IMG/VR virus record: IMGVR_UViG_2917393062_000001
Coordinates: 1 to 4,710 of that record
From: a virus
Lineage: Duplodnaviria > Heunggongvirae > Uroviricota > Caudoviricetes
Direction: 5' to 3' (one strand)
DNA length: 4,710 nt
Position 1 is the first letter of the stretch. Each line of letters starts with the position of its first letter. Shown piece after piece: positions 1 to 4,710 of this stretch. Under the pieces are notes generated by a model, which had not been told where the DNA came from, did not search any database, and was given only the letters and a program-made list of their open reading frames with translations. A program made the position numbers and the translations under genes.

Positions 1-69
1 TATCTCGTGATCTCTTGAATCTCTGCTGGCGATAGCGTTAATTCGTACATGTGGTCACGTGCCTTACAG

Positions 70-108
70 CATGACCGCCGTCAATATAATCCGGAGATGG
101 CGGTCATG
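70..108. repeat. Hairpin-forming inverted repeat (catgaccgcc 70-79 / ggcggtcatg 99-108, 19-nt loop) overlapping the stop codon of the exonuclease gene
   Basis: 10-bp perfect arms; the distal arm contains the TGA stop (104-106). No U-tract follows on the minus strand, so it is not a canonical terminator. Confidence 0.6.
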
Positions 109-2590
109 GTTGAACATTAAAATCAGCCTGATTTGGGATCAGTTTTTGCCAGATTGCTGAAACTTGTTTTGCCTGGTGGCGTGCATCATCGAGTGCATTG
201 TGAGGTACACCTTCGAATGGAATAGCCGTCCTGACATCGAAGTCCAGGGCTTTTCCCAGCTCAACGATTGTGCGCACATCGCGATCGTTGTAGTAACGCC
301 ACGGGCAGGGGATCCCCTGCCGTTCATATGAACGGCGTAAAATCACATTGTCGAAGTTGGCTCCATTTCCCCAGATTTGGACAAAACTTTCGCCGGAGTT
401 TTCGTTGATAAATTCCCGTAATTGCAGTAGAGCGTCATCTAACGGGATTTCATCGGTAAAAATGGCAGATTGCGCTTCGCGTGATTGCTTCGCCCACCAC
501 TTTATTGCTTTCCGGTCGATGATTCCGCCAGATGTTTCCAGATCGATAGCTTTGCTGAACTCCGGTCCCATCTCTCCGGTTTCGGGATCAAAAAATTTAC
601 CGCCAATAGAGTTGATTGGCGCATCAGGATTTGTTCCCATCGTTTCAAGGTCGACCGACAGGTGACTCCATACTCTGCTGGTGGATGTGGTTTTATGATG
701 ACCGTTCACCTTAACTAAGGGATCTGTCGCCACGCCAGTTTCACTACCGCTGGAGTGGTGATGATCACCGACAGCATTCTCCTTGTGAGGATGTTCAGCA
801 CCTTCCATTTCTTCAGGATTATTTTCCTGAGCTTCAACCTGATTTTCTCCATTGAATGTTTTCTGATATGTCGCGTCGCCCATCACCGCGCCACAGTCAG
901 GGCTGTTGCCGCCGCCGGTCTGATCGCAGGCGGTGCAGATCTTTTCCGGTTCCTGTTGCGCTACTGGTTCAGGTTGTTTCGTTTCTGGCTCGTTTTGTTG
1001 CGTATTTGGGCTGTTTTGTTCCGCTTTCTGGTCGTTCTGTTCCGTTTCTTGCTGGTTCTGGTTCACAGAATCGCGGGTCTGGATCCCCTTAACCCATTTC
1101 GGATCATTCGGGTCGCTAATCCCTGCAACAAATTCACCACGTGATGCAGCGAGCAACTGATTGGCGTCAGGCTGGCTGATATTGGCTGCCTGCATAATTT
1201 TGTTTACTTCGTCAGCGGTAACTTTTACCGGCTCTGGTTGTGCGGTCGTGTCAGATGCACCAGTATTTTGTTGTGAACCTGAGTATGTGCCGTTTTTGCG
1301 GGCAAAATATTCTTCTTTCGTGATTTCAGTAGCCCCCGCAGCCAGCGCCCTGTCCAGGCCAGAAAGTTTGTTTGCGCGACCGTATTTTTCGCCATCCTTA
1401 TCGGTGAAGAGGAAATAGAACGGCCCCTCACGCTCTACAGATGGTTCGACTTCCACTTTGCATTCGGTTTTTTCGTTGTCCGGAATTGCCGTTTCCACTG
1501 CATCAGCTTCTGGTACTGGCGACGGGAGAGTATTAGTTGTGCTCTGATTTGTTCCTTCATCTTCAAATACGCCCTTTGTAGTCAGGTATTCAGTAATGTA
1601 TTTGCTCAGCGCCACGGGATCCTTGTGAATGTCGATCGGACGTTCACGAACAAGACCAAAAATCGTCTGACGAGTGTAGCGAATGGCATCAGGCTGTTTG
1701 CGCATTGATGCGGAGATGCGCTTCCAGTCTTCGCGATCTTTGGCGATAACTTCATTTTTTGCCCAGCGGTGGATGTTGCCGTCAATGTTTCCGGCATCCA
1801 CGTCTCCAGGCCAGAGAGCGTAGGCCAGTTCGTCGTCCAGCGTTTTCCATGTCTGCTTGTATTCGCGACGAATGGTAGCAGTGACAGGGGGGATTTTTCC
1901 CGCCGGGTTTTCAGTGTGCTGTCGGTTGACTTTGGCGCGGGCAAGATCAACAACAGAAGTATATGCACCACCTTCTTTGCGCTCCTTTTCCAGGCGTTTT
2001 TTACGGTCGAGAAAATATGCCTGAACGTCGGGCCATTTGGCGGTTGGTTTTAAATCACGTCTGGCATCGTTGATGTATTCAATCTGACGTTCCGGATACA
2101 TGGCGTTAATTTCTTTAGTCCGGATAATTGCCTCTGCGAGGTGTCCGTCAAAGGTCATCATGTCGTCATCGCCAAGAAGCCCGCTTGCGTTGATGACCAT
2201 ATCCACGGTGACGTTTTCATGTGCGCCAAACTTAACGAGAACAGCGGCCTGTTTGTCGTCGGATAACTGATCAAAGTTAACAATTTCTGTATTCGGCTCT
2301 GGTTCGACCGGGACAAAGGAAGACGATCCCTCATCCCAGCGGTTTTCCTGCATATATTCGGTATCCCAGGAATCAATGGCAGGGCGGGGCATGCCAGGTT
2401 TATCCTCACAGACAAGAAATTTATAAGCGCAGTCCTGAGCTGCCGGATATTGCTCCAGGAATTGCCATGCAAATTTTGCACGGGCGCGGCGCTCGTCGCC
2501 GGCTTCAATGGCAGTGGCTACAGCAACTGCACCTTCTTCCTTTATTGCCTGTTCGTCCGGAATGGCGGCGCAAATAAAGACTTTACTCAT
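104..2590 (-). CDS. Large prophage exonuclease (828 aa), RecE-related mosaic: uncharacterised N-terminal region, Q/N/E/P-rich linker with a Cys cluster, C-terminal DnaQ-like (DEDDh) 3'-5' exonuclease domain
   Basis: Uninterrupted 2487-nt ORF. ATG at 2590-2588 is preceded by GAGG 10 nt upstream (minus strand ...aatGAGGttaaaacaaaATG). C-terminal motifs read directly from the translation: Exo I VDLET (D647/E649, nt 644-652) followed by INSIGG; Exo II GNGANFD (D747, nt 350-352); Exo III HNALDDA (H797/D802, nt 185-202). The central segment (LLAASRGEFVAGISDPNDPKWVKGIQTRDSVNQ...CTACDQTGGGNSPDCGAVMGDATYQ...) closely resembles, from memory, the linker of Rac RecE (exonuclease VIII). Internal ORFs on either strand look like low-complexity junk. 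Confidence 0.85.
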   Translation of the reverse strand: MSKVFICAAIPDEQAIKEEGAVAVATAIEAGDERRARAKFAWQFLEQYPAAQDCAYKFLVCEDKPGMPRPAIDSWDTEYMQENRWDEGSSSFVPVEPEPNTEIVNFDQLSDDKQAAVLVKFGAHENVTVDMVINASGLLGDDDMMTFDGHLAEAIIRTKEINAMYPERQIEYINDARRDLKPTAKWPDVQAYFLDRKKRLEKERKEGGAYTSVVDLARAKVNRQHTENPAGKIPPVTATIRREYKQTWKTLDDELAYALWPGDVDAGNIDGNIHRWAKNEVIAKDREDWKRISASMRKQPDAIRYTRQTIFGLVRERPIDIHKDPVALSKYITEYLTTKGVFEDEGTNQSTTNTLPSPVPEADAVETAIPDNEKTECKVEVEPSVEREGPFYFLFTDKDGEKYGRANKLSGLDRALAAGATEITKEEYFARKNGTYSGSQQNTGASDTTAQPEPVKVTADEVNKIMQAANISQPDANQLLAASRGEFVAGISDPNDPKWVKGIQTRDSVNQNQQETEQNDQKAEQNSPNTQQNEPETKQPEPVAQQEPEKICTACDQTGGGNSPDCGAVMGDATYQKTFNGENQVEAQENNPEEMEGAEHPHKENAVGDHHHSSGSETGVATDPLVKVNGHHKTTSTSRVWSHLSVDLETMGTNPDAPINSIGGKFFDPETGEMGPEFSKAIDLETSGGIIDRKAIKWWAKQSREAQSAIFTDEIPLDDALLQLREFINENSGESFVQIWGNGANFDNVILRRSYERQGIPCPWRYYNDRDVRTIVELGKALDFDVRTAIPFEGVPHNALDDARHQAKQVSAIWQKLIPNQADFNVQP

Positions 2591-2683
2591 TTTGTTTTAA
2601 CCTCATTACAGATTTAAGGGTGAACAAATCCCTGCCATTGCTGGCATATAAAAATGAAACCGGATATTTATTACGGTGCTGGT

Positions 2684-2875
2684 TTAAAGCCCTGCCGGGA
2701 CTTCGTTATTATCCATGCGAATAACTTTATCAACCGGATAACAGTTGCCGGGAATTTTCTGTTCCGCTGCGGCAGCCATGCACTCTTTCATTGAACCATA
2801 TATACCCGTAACCACATCAACCGGTTCGCCCGTATTAAGAAAAACGGTCAGAGTGAGAGCAATAGCAGTATTCAT
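2684..2875 (-). CDS. Small hypothetical protein (63 aa) with a hydrophobic, signal-peptide-like N-terminus (MNTAIALTLTVFLNTG...) and two Cys
   Basis: ORF in the same frame as track ORF 2684..2929, but I prefer the internal ATG at 2875-2873 because it has AGGA 8 nt upstream and overlaps the upstream stop as ATGA (translational coupling). The longer 81-aa version has no comparable ribosome-binding site. Confidence 0.5.
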   Translation of the reverse strand: MNTAIALTLTVFLNTGEPVDVVTGIYGSMKECMAAAAEQKIPGNCYPVDKVIRMDNNEVPAGL

Positions 2876-3060
2876 TGCCAGTATCCTTTTTGCATCAGGC
2901 GTGAACGGGCCAGCATTGAAGCAATGCATACCTTATTTAATAAATTCGGTTCGCGCTTTATCTGGTTAATGGCATCTTCAATAAACTGTTTTTTGCCAGT
3001 AATAACGCCAATTTCAAAACGAGTTTCAGGCGTAGTGGAATTGAGTAATAACGTTTCCAT
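2872..3060 (-). CDS. Small hypothetical prophage early protein (62 aa)
   Basis: ORF with ATG at 3060-3058 preceded by GAGGA (plus-strand tcctc 3068-3072) 7 nt upstream. Stop TGA overlaps the next ATG (ATGA at 2875-2872). Same orientation as and immediately upstream of the exonuclease gene, as for the small kil/racC-class genes of Rac-like prophages. No family recognised. Confidence 0.5.
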   Translation of the reverse strand: METLLLNSTTPETRFEIGVITGKKQFIEDAINQIKREPNLLNKVCIASMLARSRLMQKGYWQ

Positions 3061-3077
3061 TATCGCGTCCTCAGGAA

Positions 3078-3222
3078 TGAATTTTGTGATGCGGTGCCTG
3101 GTGCCTCCAGGTGACGTTAACCAGTTAACAATTAACGCCGGATGTATAAGGAGTTTCGTTACGCCAGTAAAAGGTCACTTTACTGTTTTAACTGAGCCGC
3201 ATTCACCGCATCACAAAATTCA
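3078..3222. repeat. Perfect 19-bp inverted repeat, arms tgaattttgtgatgcggtg (3078-3096) and caccgcatcacaaaattca (3204-3222), separated by 107 bp
   Basis: Exact reverse complements, checked base by base. The proximal arm ends 18 nt upstream of the ATG of the 62-aa gene (3060). Confidence 0.8.
3116..3136. repeat. Cluster of three TTAAC motifs (two full GTTAAC palindromes at 3116-3121 and 3125-3130, plus ATTAAC at 3131-3136)
   Basis: acgTTAACcagTTAACaaTTAACgcc read directly; lies inside the spacer of the 19-bp inverted repeat. Confidence 0.6.
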
Positions 3223-3223
3223 C

Positions 3224-3269
3224 TTTAAAAAGGGCGGGTATCACAGGGAAAACAAAACGGATACCCGCC
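3224..3269 (-). terminator. Terminator-like hairpin in the leader of the leftward small-gene/exonuclease operon: 10-bp GC-rich stem (ggcgggtatc 3233-3242 / gatacccgcc 3260-3269), 17-nt loop, then TTTTT on the minus strand
   Basis: Perfect 10-bp inverted repeat. On the minus strand the stem is followed by cTTTTTaaag (plus aaaaa 3227-3231). The orientation is such that it would stop or attenuate leftward transcription entering the operon. Confidence 0.4.
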
Positions 3270-3422
3270 AAAAGGTAATCAACATGGGTTGTTGTAGCTG
3301 ATTGCCACAACCGGAAGCGCACGGACTAAGATGCCGGCGGCACGCAACAGAGGGAGAAGTGACTTCGCCGTGCGCTTTCGTGTTGTGTGCCTGCTTTTAA
3401 CCACGTCAGGCGAGGTGGTTCC

Positions 3423-3462
3423 TGTTATTCCCCAACAACAAGAAATTTGTATAATCCGGATA
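3423..3462 (+). promoter_or_regulatory. Candidate sigma70 promoter for the plus-strand zinc-ribbon gene: perfect -10 TATAAT at 3450-3455 with TG immediately upstream; weak -35 (TTATTC/TGTTAT around 3423-3430)
   Basis: TATAAT read directly at 3450-3455 (tttgTATAATccgg), 35-60 nt upstream of the candidate start codons. The -35 is poor, so activity may depend on the adjacent TG or on a factor binding the flanking direct repeats. Confidence 0.4.
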
Positions 3463-3478
3463 TCCCCAACAACGAGAA
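3429..3478 (+). repeat. 16-bp direct repeat tccccaacaac(a/g)agaa at 3429-3444 and 3463-3478 (15/16 identical, 34-bp period) flanking the TATAAT -10 element
   Basis: Read directly; the two copies bracket the -10 hexamer at 3450-3455. Confidence 0.7.
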
Positions 3479-3513
3479 GAGTATGTAACGTGATAGTTGA
3501 GTTCTCAGCAGCA

Positions 3514-3945
3514 ATGTCGGCAATCAAAGAAACTGCGGTAATGGCAAAGGGTATTCTGAATGCCAAAAATCAAACTGAGATAAATTCCGCTGTCAGCGAT
3601 ATGCTTTCAAAACTTACGTCTGTTCAGTTTGAATGCGTATCGCTCATTGAGATGGTGCGCTCTTATCAGGAAGAAGCCGCATCTCTCAAAGCAAAAATTG
3701 CAGAGATAGAAGACTTTCAGCAACAGGCGGAAGGTTACAAACTTAACAAGCTTGATTCTGGAACTCTTGTGTATTCCAAGAAGCAATTTATAGGCGATAC
3801 TGAGATAACAGTGCATCTTTGCCCACAATGTTTTGGAAAAAAGGTAATATCTGTACTGCAACCAATGGAAATAATGCGCCTTGATGCTCATTTTCGTACT
3901 TTTTGCCCCGCTTGCAATAATAAGTTCTGGATGAACTCAAGATAA
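3514..3945 (+). CDS. Coiled-coil / zinc-ribbon protein (143 aa from ATG 3514; 151 aa if in-frame GTG 3490 is used); candidate accessory (exclusion/defence or regulatory) moron
   Basis: Only convincing plus-strand ORF. Translation is protein-like, whereas the antisense ORFs (3279..3566, 3607..3891) are W/Y/F/C-rich junk. The N-terminal ~75 aa are heptad-like and charged (SLIEMVRSYQEEAASLKAKIAEIEDFQQQAEGYKL). The C-terminus carries HLCPQC...(25 aa)...FCPACNN, i.e. CxxC-x25-CxxC. GC is about 40% by hand count of a 60-nt sample, versus about 53% in a sample of the exonuclease gene. A perfect TATAAT lies at 3450-3455. Start codon uncertain: no strong SD before ATG 3514 or ATG 3541; GTG 3490 has a weak GAGAAGAG 8 nt upstream. 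The 204-aa track ORF from 3331 runs through the promoter and repeats and is rejected. Confidence 0.65.
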   Translation: MSAIKETAVMAKGILNAKNQTEINSAVSDMLSKLTSVQFECVSLIEMVRSYQEEAASLKAKIAEIEDFQQQAEGYKLNKLDSGTLVYSKKQFIGDTEITVHLCPQCFGKKVISVLQPMEIMRLDAHFRTFCPACNNKFWMNSR

Positions 3946-3990
3946 TTAACCGCTTAATAAGTTGGGACTATCCAGATTTTTAAAGAACAT

Positions 3991-4014
3991 GCCGGATGCT
4001 TATCCGTGTCCGGC
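3991..4014 (-). terminator. GC-rich hairpin (gccgga-N12-tccggc) between the convergent 40-aa gene and the zinc-ribbon gene; possible terminator for leftward transcription; REP-like motifs
   Basis: Stem gccgga (3991-3996) / tccggc (4009-4014) with a 12-nt loop. On the minus strand it is followed by aTGTTCTTTaaaaa (moderately U-rich); on the plus strand no T-run follows. Contains GCCGGATGC and TTATCCG, which echo the E. coli REP consensus, but it is shorter than a canonical REP. Confidence 0.3.
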
Positions 4015-4063
4015 GCCCGCACTTCATCTGTGGAGAAGTGCTTGAGCTCATTGGTCAGTAGTT

Positions 4064-4186
4064 TTAATCACTCGCGAAACTGGAAAGCGCCTGTTTAAAC
4101 TCACTGAAGCTGAGAGCTTCTTCGCCTTCGGCAAGGCCTTCGAAGTATTCTTCGTAAGCCTTTTCCATGATTGCGTCGAAATCCAT
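4064..4186 (-). CDS. Tiny acidic hypothetical protein (40 aa: MDFDAIMEKAYEEYFEGLAEGEEALSFSEFKQALSSFASD); alternative in-frame starts GTG 4195 or ATG 4228
   Basis: Hand translation of the minus strand (not in the supplied track, too short). ATG at 4186-4184 has AGGTGA 5 nt upstream and lies 1 nt after the stop of the 51-aa gene (TGAtATG). Followed by a GC hairpin at 3991-4014. Position and size match the second tiny gene downstream of the repressor in Rac/Qin-type prophages (ydaG/ydfB class), but the sequence itself is not recognised. Confidence 0.4.
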   Translation of the reverse strand: MDFDAIMEKAYEEYFEGLAEGEEALSFSEFKQALSSFASD

Positions 4187-4187
4187 A

Positions 4188-4343
4188 TCACTCACCTGAG
4201 TTTCTTTCCAGCCAGCGACGGGCACCATTTTCGGTTTTAAACGTTTTGCTTTTGGTATACGTCATCGCGGTGAACGTACCGTCCTGGTTAGGAAACACGC
4301 CGTATGCCAGAGATTCGTTGTTGCCAAGATCGATAGTATCCAT
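4188..4343 (-). CDS. Tiny prophage immunity-region protein, 51 aa (MDTIDLGNNESLAYGVFPNQDGTFTAMTYTKSKTFKTENGARRWLERNSGE), YdfA/YdaF-like
   Basis: Same frame as track ORF 4188..4436, but the start is placed at ATG 4343-4341, which has GAGG 6 nt upstream (aaatGAGGtcaacATG). The track's ATG at 4436 lies inside the predicted promoter spacer. Size (51 aa) and position directly downstream of a DicA-like repressor match the ydfA (Qin) / ydaF (Rac) class as I remember it; not verified by search. Confidence 0.55.
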   Translation of the reverse strand: MDTIDLGNNESLAYGVFPNQDGTFTAMTYTKSKTFKTENGARRWLERNSGE

Positions 4344-4420
4344 GTTGACCTCATTTCCCCTTAACGCCAGGGTGGCGGAACTGTTTGCTGAGAACACCGT
4401 GCGGTGTCTTGATGGAAGAT

Positions 4421-4449
4421 AATTTAGTTTTCTCATGGTAATAGGTCAA
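4421..4449 (-). promoter_or_regulatory. Candidate sigma70 promoter for the 51-aa/40-aa gene pair: -35 TTGACC (plus ggtcaa 4444-4449), 17-nt spacer, -10 TAAATT (plus aattta 4421-4426)
   Basis: Read on the minus strand: cacTTGACCtattaccatgagaaaacTAAATTatc. The -35 matches consensus 5/6 and the -10 4/6 with ideal spacing. The predicted start is about 70 nt upstream of ATG 4343. Confidence 0.4.
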
Positions 4450-4469
4450 GTGTTTTTGATGAGAAAACT
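4426..4469. promoter_or_regulatory. Perfect 11-bp inverted repeat (agttttctcat at 4426-4436, atgagaaaact at 4459-4469; 22-bp spacer) bracketing the -35 element; candidate repressor operator
   Basis: Arms are exact reverse complements and sit on either side of, and partly within, the predicted promoter immediately downstream of the DicA-like repressor gene. Confidence 0.45.
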
Positions 4470-4477
4470 CAATGTTT

Positions 4478-4516
4478 AATGCAAAACAAAGCCAATACAT
4501 TGAAATGTAAGGCTTT
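4478..4516 (-). terminator. Candidate intrinsic terminator after the DicA-like gene: composite hairpin (aaagcc/ggcttt outer stem, tacatt/aatgta inner stem) followed on the minus strand by GTTTTG
   Basis: Plus 4488-4516 is aaagcc-aa-tacatt-ga-aatgta-a-ggcttt. On the minus strand the hairpin is followed by ggcTTTGTTTTGc (U-rich), about 20 nt after the repressor stop codon. AT-rich stem, so strength is uncertain. Confidence 0.35.
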
Positions 4517-4536
4517 AAAATTTGTGAAGGAGTGGG

Positions 4537-4710
4537 TTATTGATGTTTGTTACGTTTGCGAGCTTCTAGTAGCTCGGTAAATAGGCGATTAAAATTCTCA
4601 ACACGGGCACGGAGTTCGCTGATTTGTGCTTGCTGCTCTGATTTTGGAAGTGCGCGATACAATCGCAACATCTCCAACTCATCTTCCGATAAGTCTAAGG
4701 AGCTGTTGAG
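4537..4710 (-). CDS. dicA: DicA-like prophage repressor, C-terminal 57 codons (gene starts beyond the right edge of the window)
   Basis: Minus-strand translation runs open from the window edge to TAA at 4539-4537: LNSSLDLSEDELEMLRLYRALPKSEQQAQISELRARVENFNRLFTELLEARKRNKHQ. This matches, from memory, the C-terminal dimerisation tail of E. coli DicA (..LSPKELELLELFNALPESEQDTQLAEMRARVKNFNKLFEELLKARQR..). The gene is missed by the ORF track because it is partial. Confidence 0.65.
   Translation of the reverse strand, partial: LNSSLDLSEDELEMLRLYRALPKSEQQAQISELRARVENFNRLFTELLEARKRNKHQ

Follow-up and report, generated by a model that had tools for sequence, protein, structure and literature searches.

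What is encoded by the one gene that runs against its neighbours in the early-left region of a lambdoid prophage, and how could its product be kept silent when that prophage itself grows lytically? The locus belongs to the IMG/VR virus record IMGVR_UViG_2917393062_000001 (Caudoviricetes), of which we analyzed positions 1 to 4,710; this whole stretch of 4,710 nucleotides (nt) is called the window below. The window covers the early-left part of a dicB/Qin-type lambdoid prophage, and the gene in question, at 3490-3945, is its sole supported plus-strand gene. The leftward orientation that a first-pass annotation of this DNA had given to the other genes was borne out for every gene to which a family could be assigned, all of them on the minus strand. 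The same annotation flagged the plus-strand gene as a candidate undescribed exclusion, defence or regulatory factor of unassignable architecture. Judged by its sequence and modelled fold, the product is a divergent member of the family of Rip1, a protein of Escherichia phage HK446, and its gene stands behind a cassette that aligns with the sas antisense RNA of phage P22. The gene and its immediate signals are as follows.

3490-3945, plus strand: Rip1-family gene of 151 amino acids (aa) with a GTG start (open reading frame (ORF), homologue alignment, profile, fold and PHROG match)
3474-3481, plus strand: purine-rich stretch GAGAAGAG resembling a Shine-Dalgarno (SD) sequence, 8 nt before the GTG and overlapping the second of two direct repeats
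3450-3455, plus strand: perfect TATAAT -10 hexamer, equivalent in position to the sieB promoter (sequence and comparison)
3991-4014 and 4019-4041, no strand assigned: two hairpins 3′ of the stop codon (folds)

The AlphaFold2 model of the protein, built with a homologue alignment, has a predicted local distance difference test (pLDDT) score of 90 and consists of helices at residues 2-23 and 28-80 followed by a beta domain that bears two CxxC knuckles. The helices and both knuckles of the architecture first described are thus present, with a spacing of CxxC-x24-CxxC (C111, C114, C139 and C142) in place of the x25 reported. These four cysteines and M1 are the only invariant columns among 30 diverse relatives, Rip1 included; Y83, G91 and Y95 come close to invariance, as does the L-Q of an 'S-I-L-Q' motif. 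The C-terminal four-cysteine domain is predicted to be a zinc ribbon.

The sole match in the curated libraries was phrog_1244, a family of unknown function (E 1.9e-46; E 6.7e-48 in a second run), which the window protein, HK446 Rip1 and HkaP of phage HK620 all match with E values of 1e-48 to 1e-53. When a profile of 58 homologues was searched against the PDB sequences, a single entry was returned, 9oox (chain 9oox_L, Rip1; E 9.4e-18, query residues 5-152 against target residues 15-160), and both CxxC knuckles are aligned in this match. Pairwise comparison with HK446 Rip1 (gp37) gave 23% identity by BLASTP (E 2e-10) and a probability of 98.5% by hhalign. In agreement, a Foldseek search of the PDB with the model returned only 9oox_L and 9oox_M below E 0.1, the next best match having E 0.11; 9oox_M was matched over 123 columns with E 2.8e-7, TM-scores of 0.65/0.75 and a root-mean-square deviation of 3.3 Å. 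We call the window protein a divergent member because its identity to Rip1 is only 23%. The family is large: an exhaustive profile search collected 2543 cluster representatives at E values up to 1e-3, the best 150 of the 2543 being mostly 140-180 aa long, and tblastn located more members in the Pseudomonas Mu-like phages D3112 (orf25), DMS3 and JBD30.

Entry 9oox is described as 'ring interacting pore 1 (Rip1)' of Escherichia phage HK446 and comprises 12 chains, in complex with the small terminase of Enterobacteria phage T6. A sentence of a preprint states that Rip1 senses the small terminase subunit, and the same text names TerI, Avs1-3 and Upx as other defences that sense the packaging machinery (10.64898/2026.04.30.721860). 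The window protein is similar in length to Rip1 (164 aa) and shares with it, in the same order, an N-terminal small-residue helix, a long helix and a beta domain with two CxxC knuckles and a K/x-S-I-L-Q motif, and both genes occupy an opposite-strand position in an early-left operon behind a sas-like cassette. Rip1 differs in having 10 extra residues at its N-terminus and a first helix that is Gly-rich and more hydrophobic, and HK446 has an N/cIII/kil backbone whereas the window prophage is of the dicB/ydfA type. HkaP, which is found in HK629 and HK630 as well as HK620, has the same slot and upstream cassette, but is only ~28-30% identical to the window protein. With TerI, Avs1-3 and Upx the likeness is confined to the trigger, which for them as for Rip1 is a conserved phage packaging protein; none of them is related to the window protein in sequence or fold, and Avs1-3 and Upx are large multidomain proteins that sense the large terminase.

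The claim of an unassignable architecture therefore falls, as the protein groups with HK446 Rip1 (PDB 9oox) in phrog_1244. Nor is the protein of an undescribed kind, since the structure of HK446 Rip1 has been solved (released 2026-02-04) and hkaP already appears in GenBank as a 'putative superinfection exclusion protein'. What survives of the original proposal is the kind of function, because the closest characterized relative is reported to be anti-phage.

Two other identities were considered and set aside. Scans against Pfam, NCBIfam and PADLOC returned nothing above the curated cut-offs. The weak SLATT_5/RTasSLATT matches to the helical part (17.7 bits in Pfam against a cut-off of 29.5, 18.4 in NCBIfam against a cut-off of 60, and E 0.003 in PADLOC) are coiled-coil noise, rejected because the protein lacks transmembrane helices and the scores fall well below threshold. 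The highest 19-residue Kyte-Doolittle mean is 1.14, so that no transmembrane segment is indicated; together with the lack of a PF14163 match at E values up to 1, this agrees with the earlier statement that the product is not SieB-like.

The conserved start is GTG 3490, where 74 homologues from Escherichia, Citrobacter, Enterobacter, Klebsiella, Kluyvera, Lelliottia, Edwardsiella, Izhakiella and Salmonella open with M-I-A/V-E, and PGAP calls the 151-aa form (for example WP_001546009.1, in KFu019, 'hypothetical protein'). Because homologues and PGAP agree on it, we take this codon as the start. Of the two forms initially put forward, the 151-aa GTG form is upheld and the 143-aa form from ATG 3514 is not, the homologues, PGAP and the position of the SD-like stretch all speaking against it; inspection of the sequence found no SD-like stretch before ATG 3514. 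Comparison with two other alleles gave a ratio of nonsynonymous to synonymous substitution rates (dN/dS) of ~0.27, and by this measure the gene is under purifying selection. Its G+C content (40.4%) is lower than that of the exonuclease gene of the window (49.9%), as had been noticed, but this does not single it out, because dicB (39.2%) and the region 4437-4710 (40.1%) are equally AT-rich.

The suggestion that the gene has its own promoter is backed by comparison. A -10-like hexamer (TATAAT, TAAAAT, TAAACT, TAATAT or TATATT) stands at the equivalent aligned position in 22 diverged cassettes, including those of P22 and HK620. The -35 region is weak, and for that reason a consensus promoter scan made no call at the plus-strand TATAAT. 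On the right-hand side, the hairpin noted earlier exists, in fact as two hairpins, but its reading as a terminator of the gene is not supported: neither is followed by a plus-strand T-run, and a terminator-like call was made on the minus strand, at 4006-3993. The hairpins could be a weak or bidirectional terminator or a processing site, and their assignment to the gene is uncertain. In KFu019 and E21845 the 3991-4041 region accompanies the rip1-like block. Another weak terminator-like hairpin lies inside the gene, on the minus strand at 3587-3599, ~100 nt from the gene start; the annotated tL1 of HK620 has the equivalent relative place inside hkaP.

The placement of the gene was compared with that of accessory genes in related prophages, and the proposed lambdoid exclusion slot was recovered in both position and orientation. 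HK446 rip1 is found between N and cIII/kil, on the opposite strand; HK620 hkaP is likewise placed, and so is lambda sieB, between N and ral. The exclusion annotation of HkaP itself appears to be positional; we found no functional data on this protein. SieB (PF14163; lambda and P22) shares the opposite-strand slot downstream of a conserved element and repeat cassette, but is an unrelated membrane protein of ~190 aa. In the slot of KFu019 we found the same allele as in the window, and in E21845 and P15-25 an allele 74% identical in protein. The slot of mEp460 contains unrelated small genes, and K-12 Qin reads ydfA-ydfB-ydfC-dicF-dicB without any opposite-strand gene. E. coli PSJ-22 carries a third, disrupted allele (L006 4896-5460), Rip1-like and of the P0082 type, behind the same cassette; all that is open there is a 107-aa ORF without the N-terminus, RefSeq has no annotation, and this allele is probably a decayed copy. 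The flanks are thus conserved while the cargo varies, as the first-pass annotation had asked of related prophages: a shared cassette precedes several alleles or unrelated genes, and K-12 Qin has none. The gene is an accessory gene of a temperate dicB-type prophage, absent from K-12 Qin and sharing its slot with HK446 rip1 and HK620 hkaP. At least 80% of window positions 3300-4060 was present in 59 of 5426 complete E. coli genomes (~1%), with partial matches in 2040, and close relatives of the gene occur across the Enterobacteriaceae.

Conservation upstream of the gene exceeds that of its product. By BLAST against the collected loci, HK446 and HK620 share with the window ~75 nt directly upstream of the gene, despite protein identities of only 23-28%, and the same ~75 nt precede unrelated plus-strand genes in mEp460 and KFu019. 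The elements of this cassette are listed here.

3386-3496, minus strand: sas-like antisense RNA region (alignment with P22 sas, from which the ends are taken)
3419-3444, minus strand: 11-bp hairpin of the sas-like region (predicted fold)
3388-3419, minus strand: conserved 3′ element of the sas-like region (alignment with P22 sas)
3394-3419, no strand assigned: invariant 26-nt core CTTTTAACCACRTCAGGCNNGGTGGT, which marks the slot and on the minus strand is the 3′ domain of sas
3430-3444, plus strand: direct repeat 1, CCCCAACAACAAGAA; on the minus strand, the loop and 5′ arm of the sas-like hairpin
3464-3478, plus strand: direct repeat 2, CCCCAACAACGAGAA, in the predicted 5′ untranslated region and overlapping the SD-like stretch

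According to PMC12197685, which cites Ranade and Poteete (1993), the sas antisense RNA controls translation of sieB in P22; SieB is treated there and in PMC13397905 as an exclusion function expressed in the lysogen and subject to P22 sas. The latter source, a survey of P22 small RNAs, gives the sas sequence with its hairpin and core (...UCUCGCUGUAGGGGUACACGAGAACCACCGAGCCUGACGUGGUUAAAAGACAGGCAC...). The minus strand of the window at 3386-3496 aligns end to end with this published sequence, and in the element ACCACC..GCCTGAYGTGGTTAAAAG(A)CAGGC the two do not differ. On the basis of this alignment the cassette before the window gene is a sas homologue, and by the same kind of comparison so is the cassette before the HK446 Rip1 prototype. 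A transcript of this region would be complementary to the start codon, SD-like stretch, -10 hexamer and repeat region of the plus-strand gene. The window cassette resembles P22 sas in the identical 3′ element, in a GGGG-loop hairpin at the equivalent place and in its complementarity to the SD and start; it differs in its target, which is Rip1-like and not sieB, and in the hairpin arms and repeats (CCCCAACAAC versus CCCCTACAG). We found no convincing Esc-like internal start with an SD in the gene, and because the in-frame ATG 3514 lacks an SD no Esc-like product can be proposed.

The hairpin itself favours the minus strand. In the window it folds with -9.2 kcal/mol on the minus strand versus -0.5 kcal/mol on the plus strand, because C.A mismatches of the plus strand are G.U pairs on the minus strand. 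Among 63 unique variants of the cassette, the minus strand folds better in 46 and the plus strand in 15. Folds of individual variants yielded hairpins of 8-11 bp, whose arm sequences differ between cassettes while pairing is kept, and RNAalifold found compensatory changes on both sides at 3 pairs of the consensus hairpin. A plus-strand leader or SD-sequestering hairpin is disfavoured by the asymmetry between G.U and C.A pairs; in short cassettes a plus-strand role is possible. Two inverted repeats, GCCTG/CAGGC and AACCAC/GTGGTT, interleave within the 3′ element (3388-3419) in a pseudoknot-like layout; the element is uninformative on structure since all stem positions are invariant in the collected sequences.

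The two direct repeats flank the -10 hexamer at a fixed spacing of 33-35 nt. Within a cassette 8-12 of 13 positions match between the repeats, with at least 10 matching in 21 of 22 cassettes, and these 22 cassettes contain 10 distinct repeat sequences. We infer that the likeness within each cassette stems from pairing of repeat 1, as the arm and loop of the sas hairpin, with repeat 2, as the target over the SD, so that the two would co-evolve. An operator pair for a protein is an alternative explanation of the repeats.

How general is this arrangement? The core CTTTTAACCACRTCAGGCNNGGTGGT is invariant in 8 loci with different cargo, is exactly matched in at least 120 IMG/VR contigs and also lies upstream of lambda sieB. 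When the first ORF downstream of each core match was clustered, the cargo was distributed as follows.

Rip1-like: 23
SieB (PF14163, E 2.4e-22): 23
ECs_2282-type zinc ribbon, 68 aa: 10
106-aa membrane protein: 7
148-aa protein with predicted hydrophobic segments: 6
Many other small families, including proteins of 66, 71, 93, 97 and 167 aa: various numbers

The uncharacterized families behind the sas-type cassette are candidate exclusion genes. The sas-like RNA lay outside what the first-pass annotation had flagged, and the sharing of one sas module by many unrelated cargo genes is the more unusual observation at this locus. It raises the idea, which we advance tentatively and at somewhat less than an even chance, that sas is not specific to sieB but a portable self-immunity switch independent of its cargo, preceding at least a dozen unrelated genes that lambdoid phages carry on the opposite strand of the early-left operon and acting through pairing of the repeats. 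Its parts would be the 3′ element, the GGGG-loop hairpin and a co-evolving copy of the hairpin arm over the SD of the cargo gene, and the same proposal, at the same tentative level, takes in both the Rip1 prototype and the divergent Rip1-like gene of a dicB-type prophage that has no N.

Within the protein, variation is unevenly distributed. Against the E21845 allele, codons 1-80 show a dN of 0.37 and a dS of 1.65, and codons 81-151 a dN of 0.012 and a dS of 0.15. The homologue P0005 combines an N-terminal half of the window type with a different C-terminal half; relative to P0005 and to the copy at L007 5103-5558 the gene is a recombinant mosaic, and its halves occur in other combinations in other genomes. 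Across the subfamily, the helices, beta region and both knuckles have entropies of 0.5-1.2 bits, the tail (143-151) has 2.2 bits and the inter-knuckle residues 126-138 have 2.7 bits. Conservation is highest in the first helix (majority fraction 0.82). This distribution is compatible with an effector end that is conserved and a sensor end that varies; target specificity may lie in the C-terminal half, as the hypervariable inter-knuckle stretch and the exchange of halves between alleles suggest.

The explanation we favour, and consider probable, is that the gene is a single-protein anti-phage defence of the Rip1 family, carried by a prophage and silenced by a sas-like RNA. The mechanism is carried over from HK446 Rip1 by homology at 23% identity. 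On this model a lysogen would make the protein from the gene's own promoter (-10 hexamer at 3450-3455), and the protein would be harmless until an infecting phage supplied a packaging protein in ring form, the likeliest candidate being its small terminase. About 12 copies would then dock on the ring through their C-terminal beta/zinc-ribbon domains, with the C-terminal half determining which target is recognized, and the N-terminal amphipathic helices would gather into a membrane pore, so that the cell would be killed or arrested before progeny are made. As in the P22 sas/sieB pair, the sas-like antisense RNA would be a product of leftward early transcription, whether that of the induced prophage itself or that of a related phage superinfecting the lysogen; by covering the SD and start codon this RNA would block translation and spare the prophage's own lytic cycle. 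Both pore formation by the window allele and antisense control at the window locus are proposed by analogy, with Rip1 and with P22 respectively.

Several observations weigh against this explanation. The protein matches no defence family in PADLOC or NCBIfam, and the role of Rip1 itself is known from a PDB title, a conference summary and one preprint sentence. The N-terminal helix (residues 2-23; pLDDT 72-80) is amphipathic and moderately hydrophobic, and its counterpart in Rip1 is apparently unmodelled in 9oox, where 124-126 of 164 residues are present. Compared with shuffled sequences the antisense region as a whole is not more stable (z 0.48), the support being limited to the local hairpin. 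A search of the 5′ coding regions of 14 cargo genes for a dedicated antisense promoter turned up no conserved site, and we therefore assume read-through from the early-left operon as the source of the RNA. Since identity to the sole characterized member is 23%, the trigger could also differ. A protein with the family and fold of Rip1 might sense another ring or oligomer, such as the portal or an assembly intermediate, or might sequester terminase without forming a pore. The amphipathic rather than hydrophobic first helix is compatible with such a change of output, and the hypervariable inter-knuckle region and tail and the exchanged C-terminal halves indicate that specificity drifts within the family. 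Yet that first helix is the segment which the subfamily conserves best, in a pattern common with Rip1, which argues for a common effector role, and the depositors of 9oox named their molecule a 'pore'. We regard a different trigger or output as unlikely, though deserving more weight than the two departures from defence that follow.

A zinc ribbon might instead bind nucleic acid or RNA polymerase and tune prophage or host expression. Weak sub-threshold matches to zinc-ribbon and DnaJ-CXXCXGXG-type domains and to CdsZ, a 'zinc ribbon domain regulatory protein' (E 0.62), point in this direction, as do the small ECs_2282-type zinc ribbons that occupy the slot in other phages. These domain matches, however, are far below the curated cut-offs, the full-length sequence and fold match Rip1 only, and the other named occupant of the slot, SieB, is an exclusion protein; a regulatory role is accordingly very improbable. 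We give just as little credence to a role in the prophage's own life cycle, in which the protein would modulate the terminase of that prophage or act on lysis timing like a holin, with exclusion as a by-product. Such a role would suit the binding of the prototype to a small terminase ring and the homologues in D3112 (orf25), DMS3 and JBD30, which sit elsewhere in the genome, at ~13 kb. It sits poorly with the evidence that the gene is dispensable, being missing from the close relatives K-12 Qin and mEp460 (the latter with other cargo) and disrupted in PSJ-22, and with its orientation against the lytic early operon, facing an antisense RNA that in P22 shuts the slot gene off during lytic growth. 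Rip1-type defence under sas-like silencing thus remains the explanation that we prefer.

The remaining genes of the window define the prophage backbone, and are listed with the evidence for each.

104-2590, minus strand: exonuclease of 828 aa (Pfam: C-terminal Rv2179c-like 3′-5′ exoribonuclease domain, residues 643-814, E 1.7e-62)
2684-2875, minus strand: DUF1482/YdfD-like gene (family match)
2872-3060, minus strand: dicB (family match)
4064-4228, minus strand: YdfB-like gene (family match)
4188-4436, minus strand: YdfA/DUF1391 gene (family match)

The minus strand also carries the tail of a repressor-side gene. Over 41 nt (4188-4228) the YdfB-like ORF overlaps the YdfA-like one. No Pfam family was matched by the N-terminal 640 residues of the exonuclease, which include a Q/E/N/P-rich stretch. 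A RecE-like identity is ruled out for this protein, its sole domain match being Rv2179c-like, and the Rac/RecE label first attached to the region gives way to a dicB/Qin-like backbone with an Rv2179c-type exonuclease. There is no ydfC in the window at 4043-4230; the gene is present in E21845, between the rip1-like gene and ydfB, in K-12 Qin and in KFu019, where it adjoins the rip1-like gene.

Between the Rip1-family gene and dicB lie two further minus-strand elements. The DicF slot (3229-3295) has no Rfam DicF match even at E values up to 1. Canonical DicF (RF00039, 76.7 bits) is found in K-12, KFu019 and mEp460, and the window sequence aligns with it only at the flanks and the terminator tail (GCCGCCCUUUUU-like; in the window, GGCGGGUAUC...GAUACCCGCCCUUUUU). 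The region may encode a variant of DicF whose seed differs. Between this slot and dicB, a structured segment at 3083-3220 resembles Rfam STnc100 at 27.9 bits (E 0.003; gathering score 47); a long-range inverted repeat, AATTTTGTGATGCGGTG / CACCGCATCACAAAATT, closes it.

For a protein that RefSeq lists as 'hypothetical', these results provide a lead at the level of function, namely the Rip1 family with its reported sensing of terminase rings. The family is modular, and the exchange of halves suggests a route to mapping its specificity and re-targeting it. The comparison also ties the Rip1 family, including its prototype, to the sas/sieB antisense switch described in 1993, and this link points to how a lethal protein could stay silent during the lytic cycle of its own prophage. 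The 26-nt core, finally, identifies a slot in which most of the other cargo genes are uncharacterized; should sas indeed prove to be a portable switch, these genes would constitute a ready-made catalogue of new abortive-infection genes.

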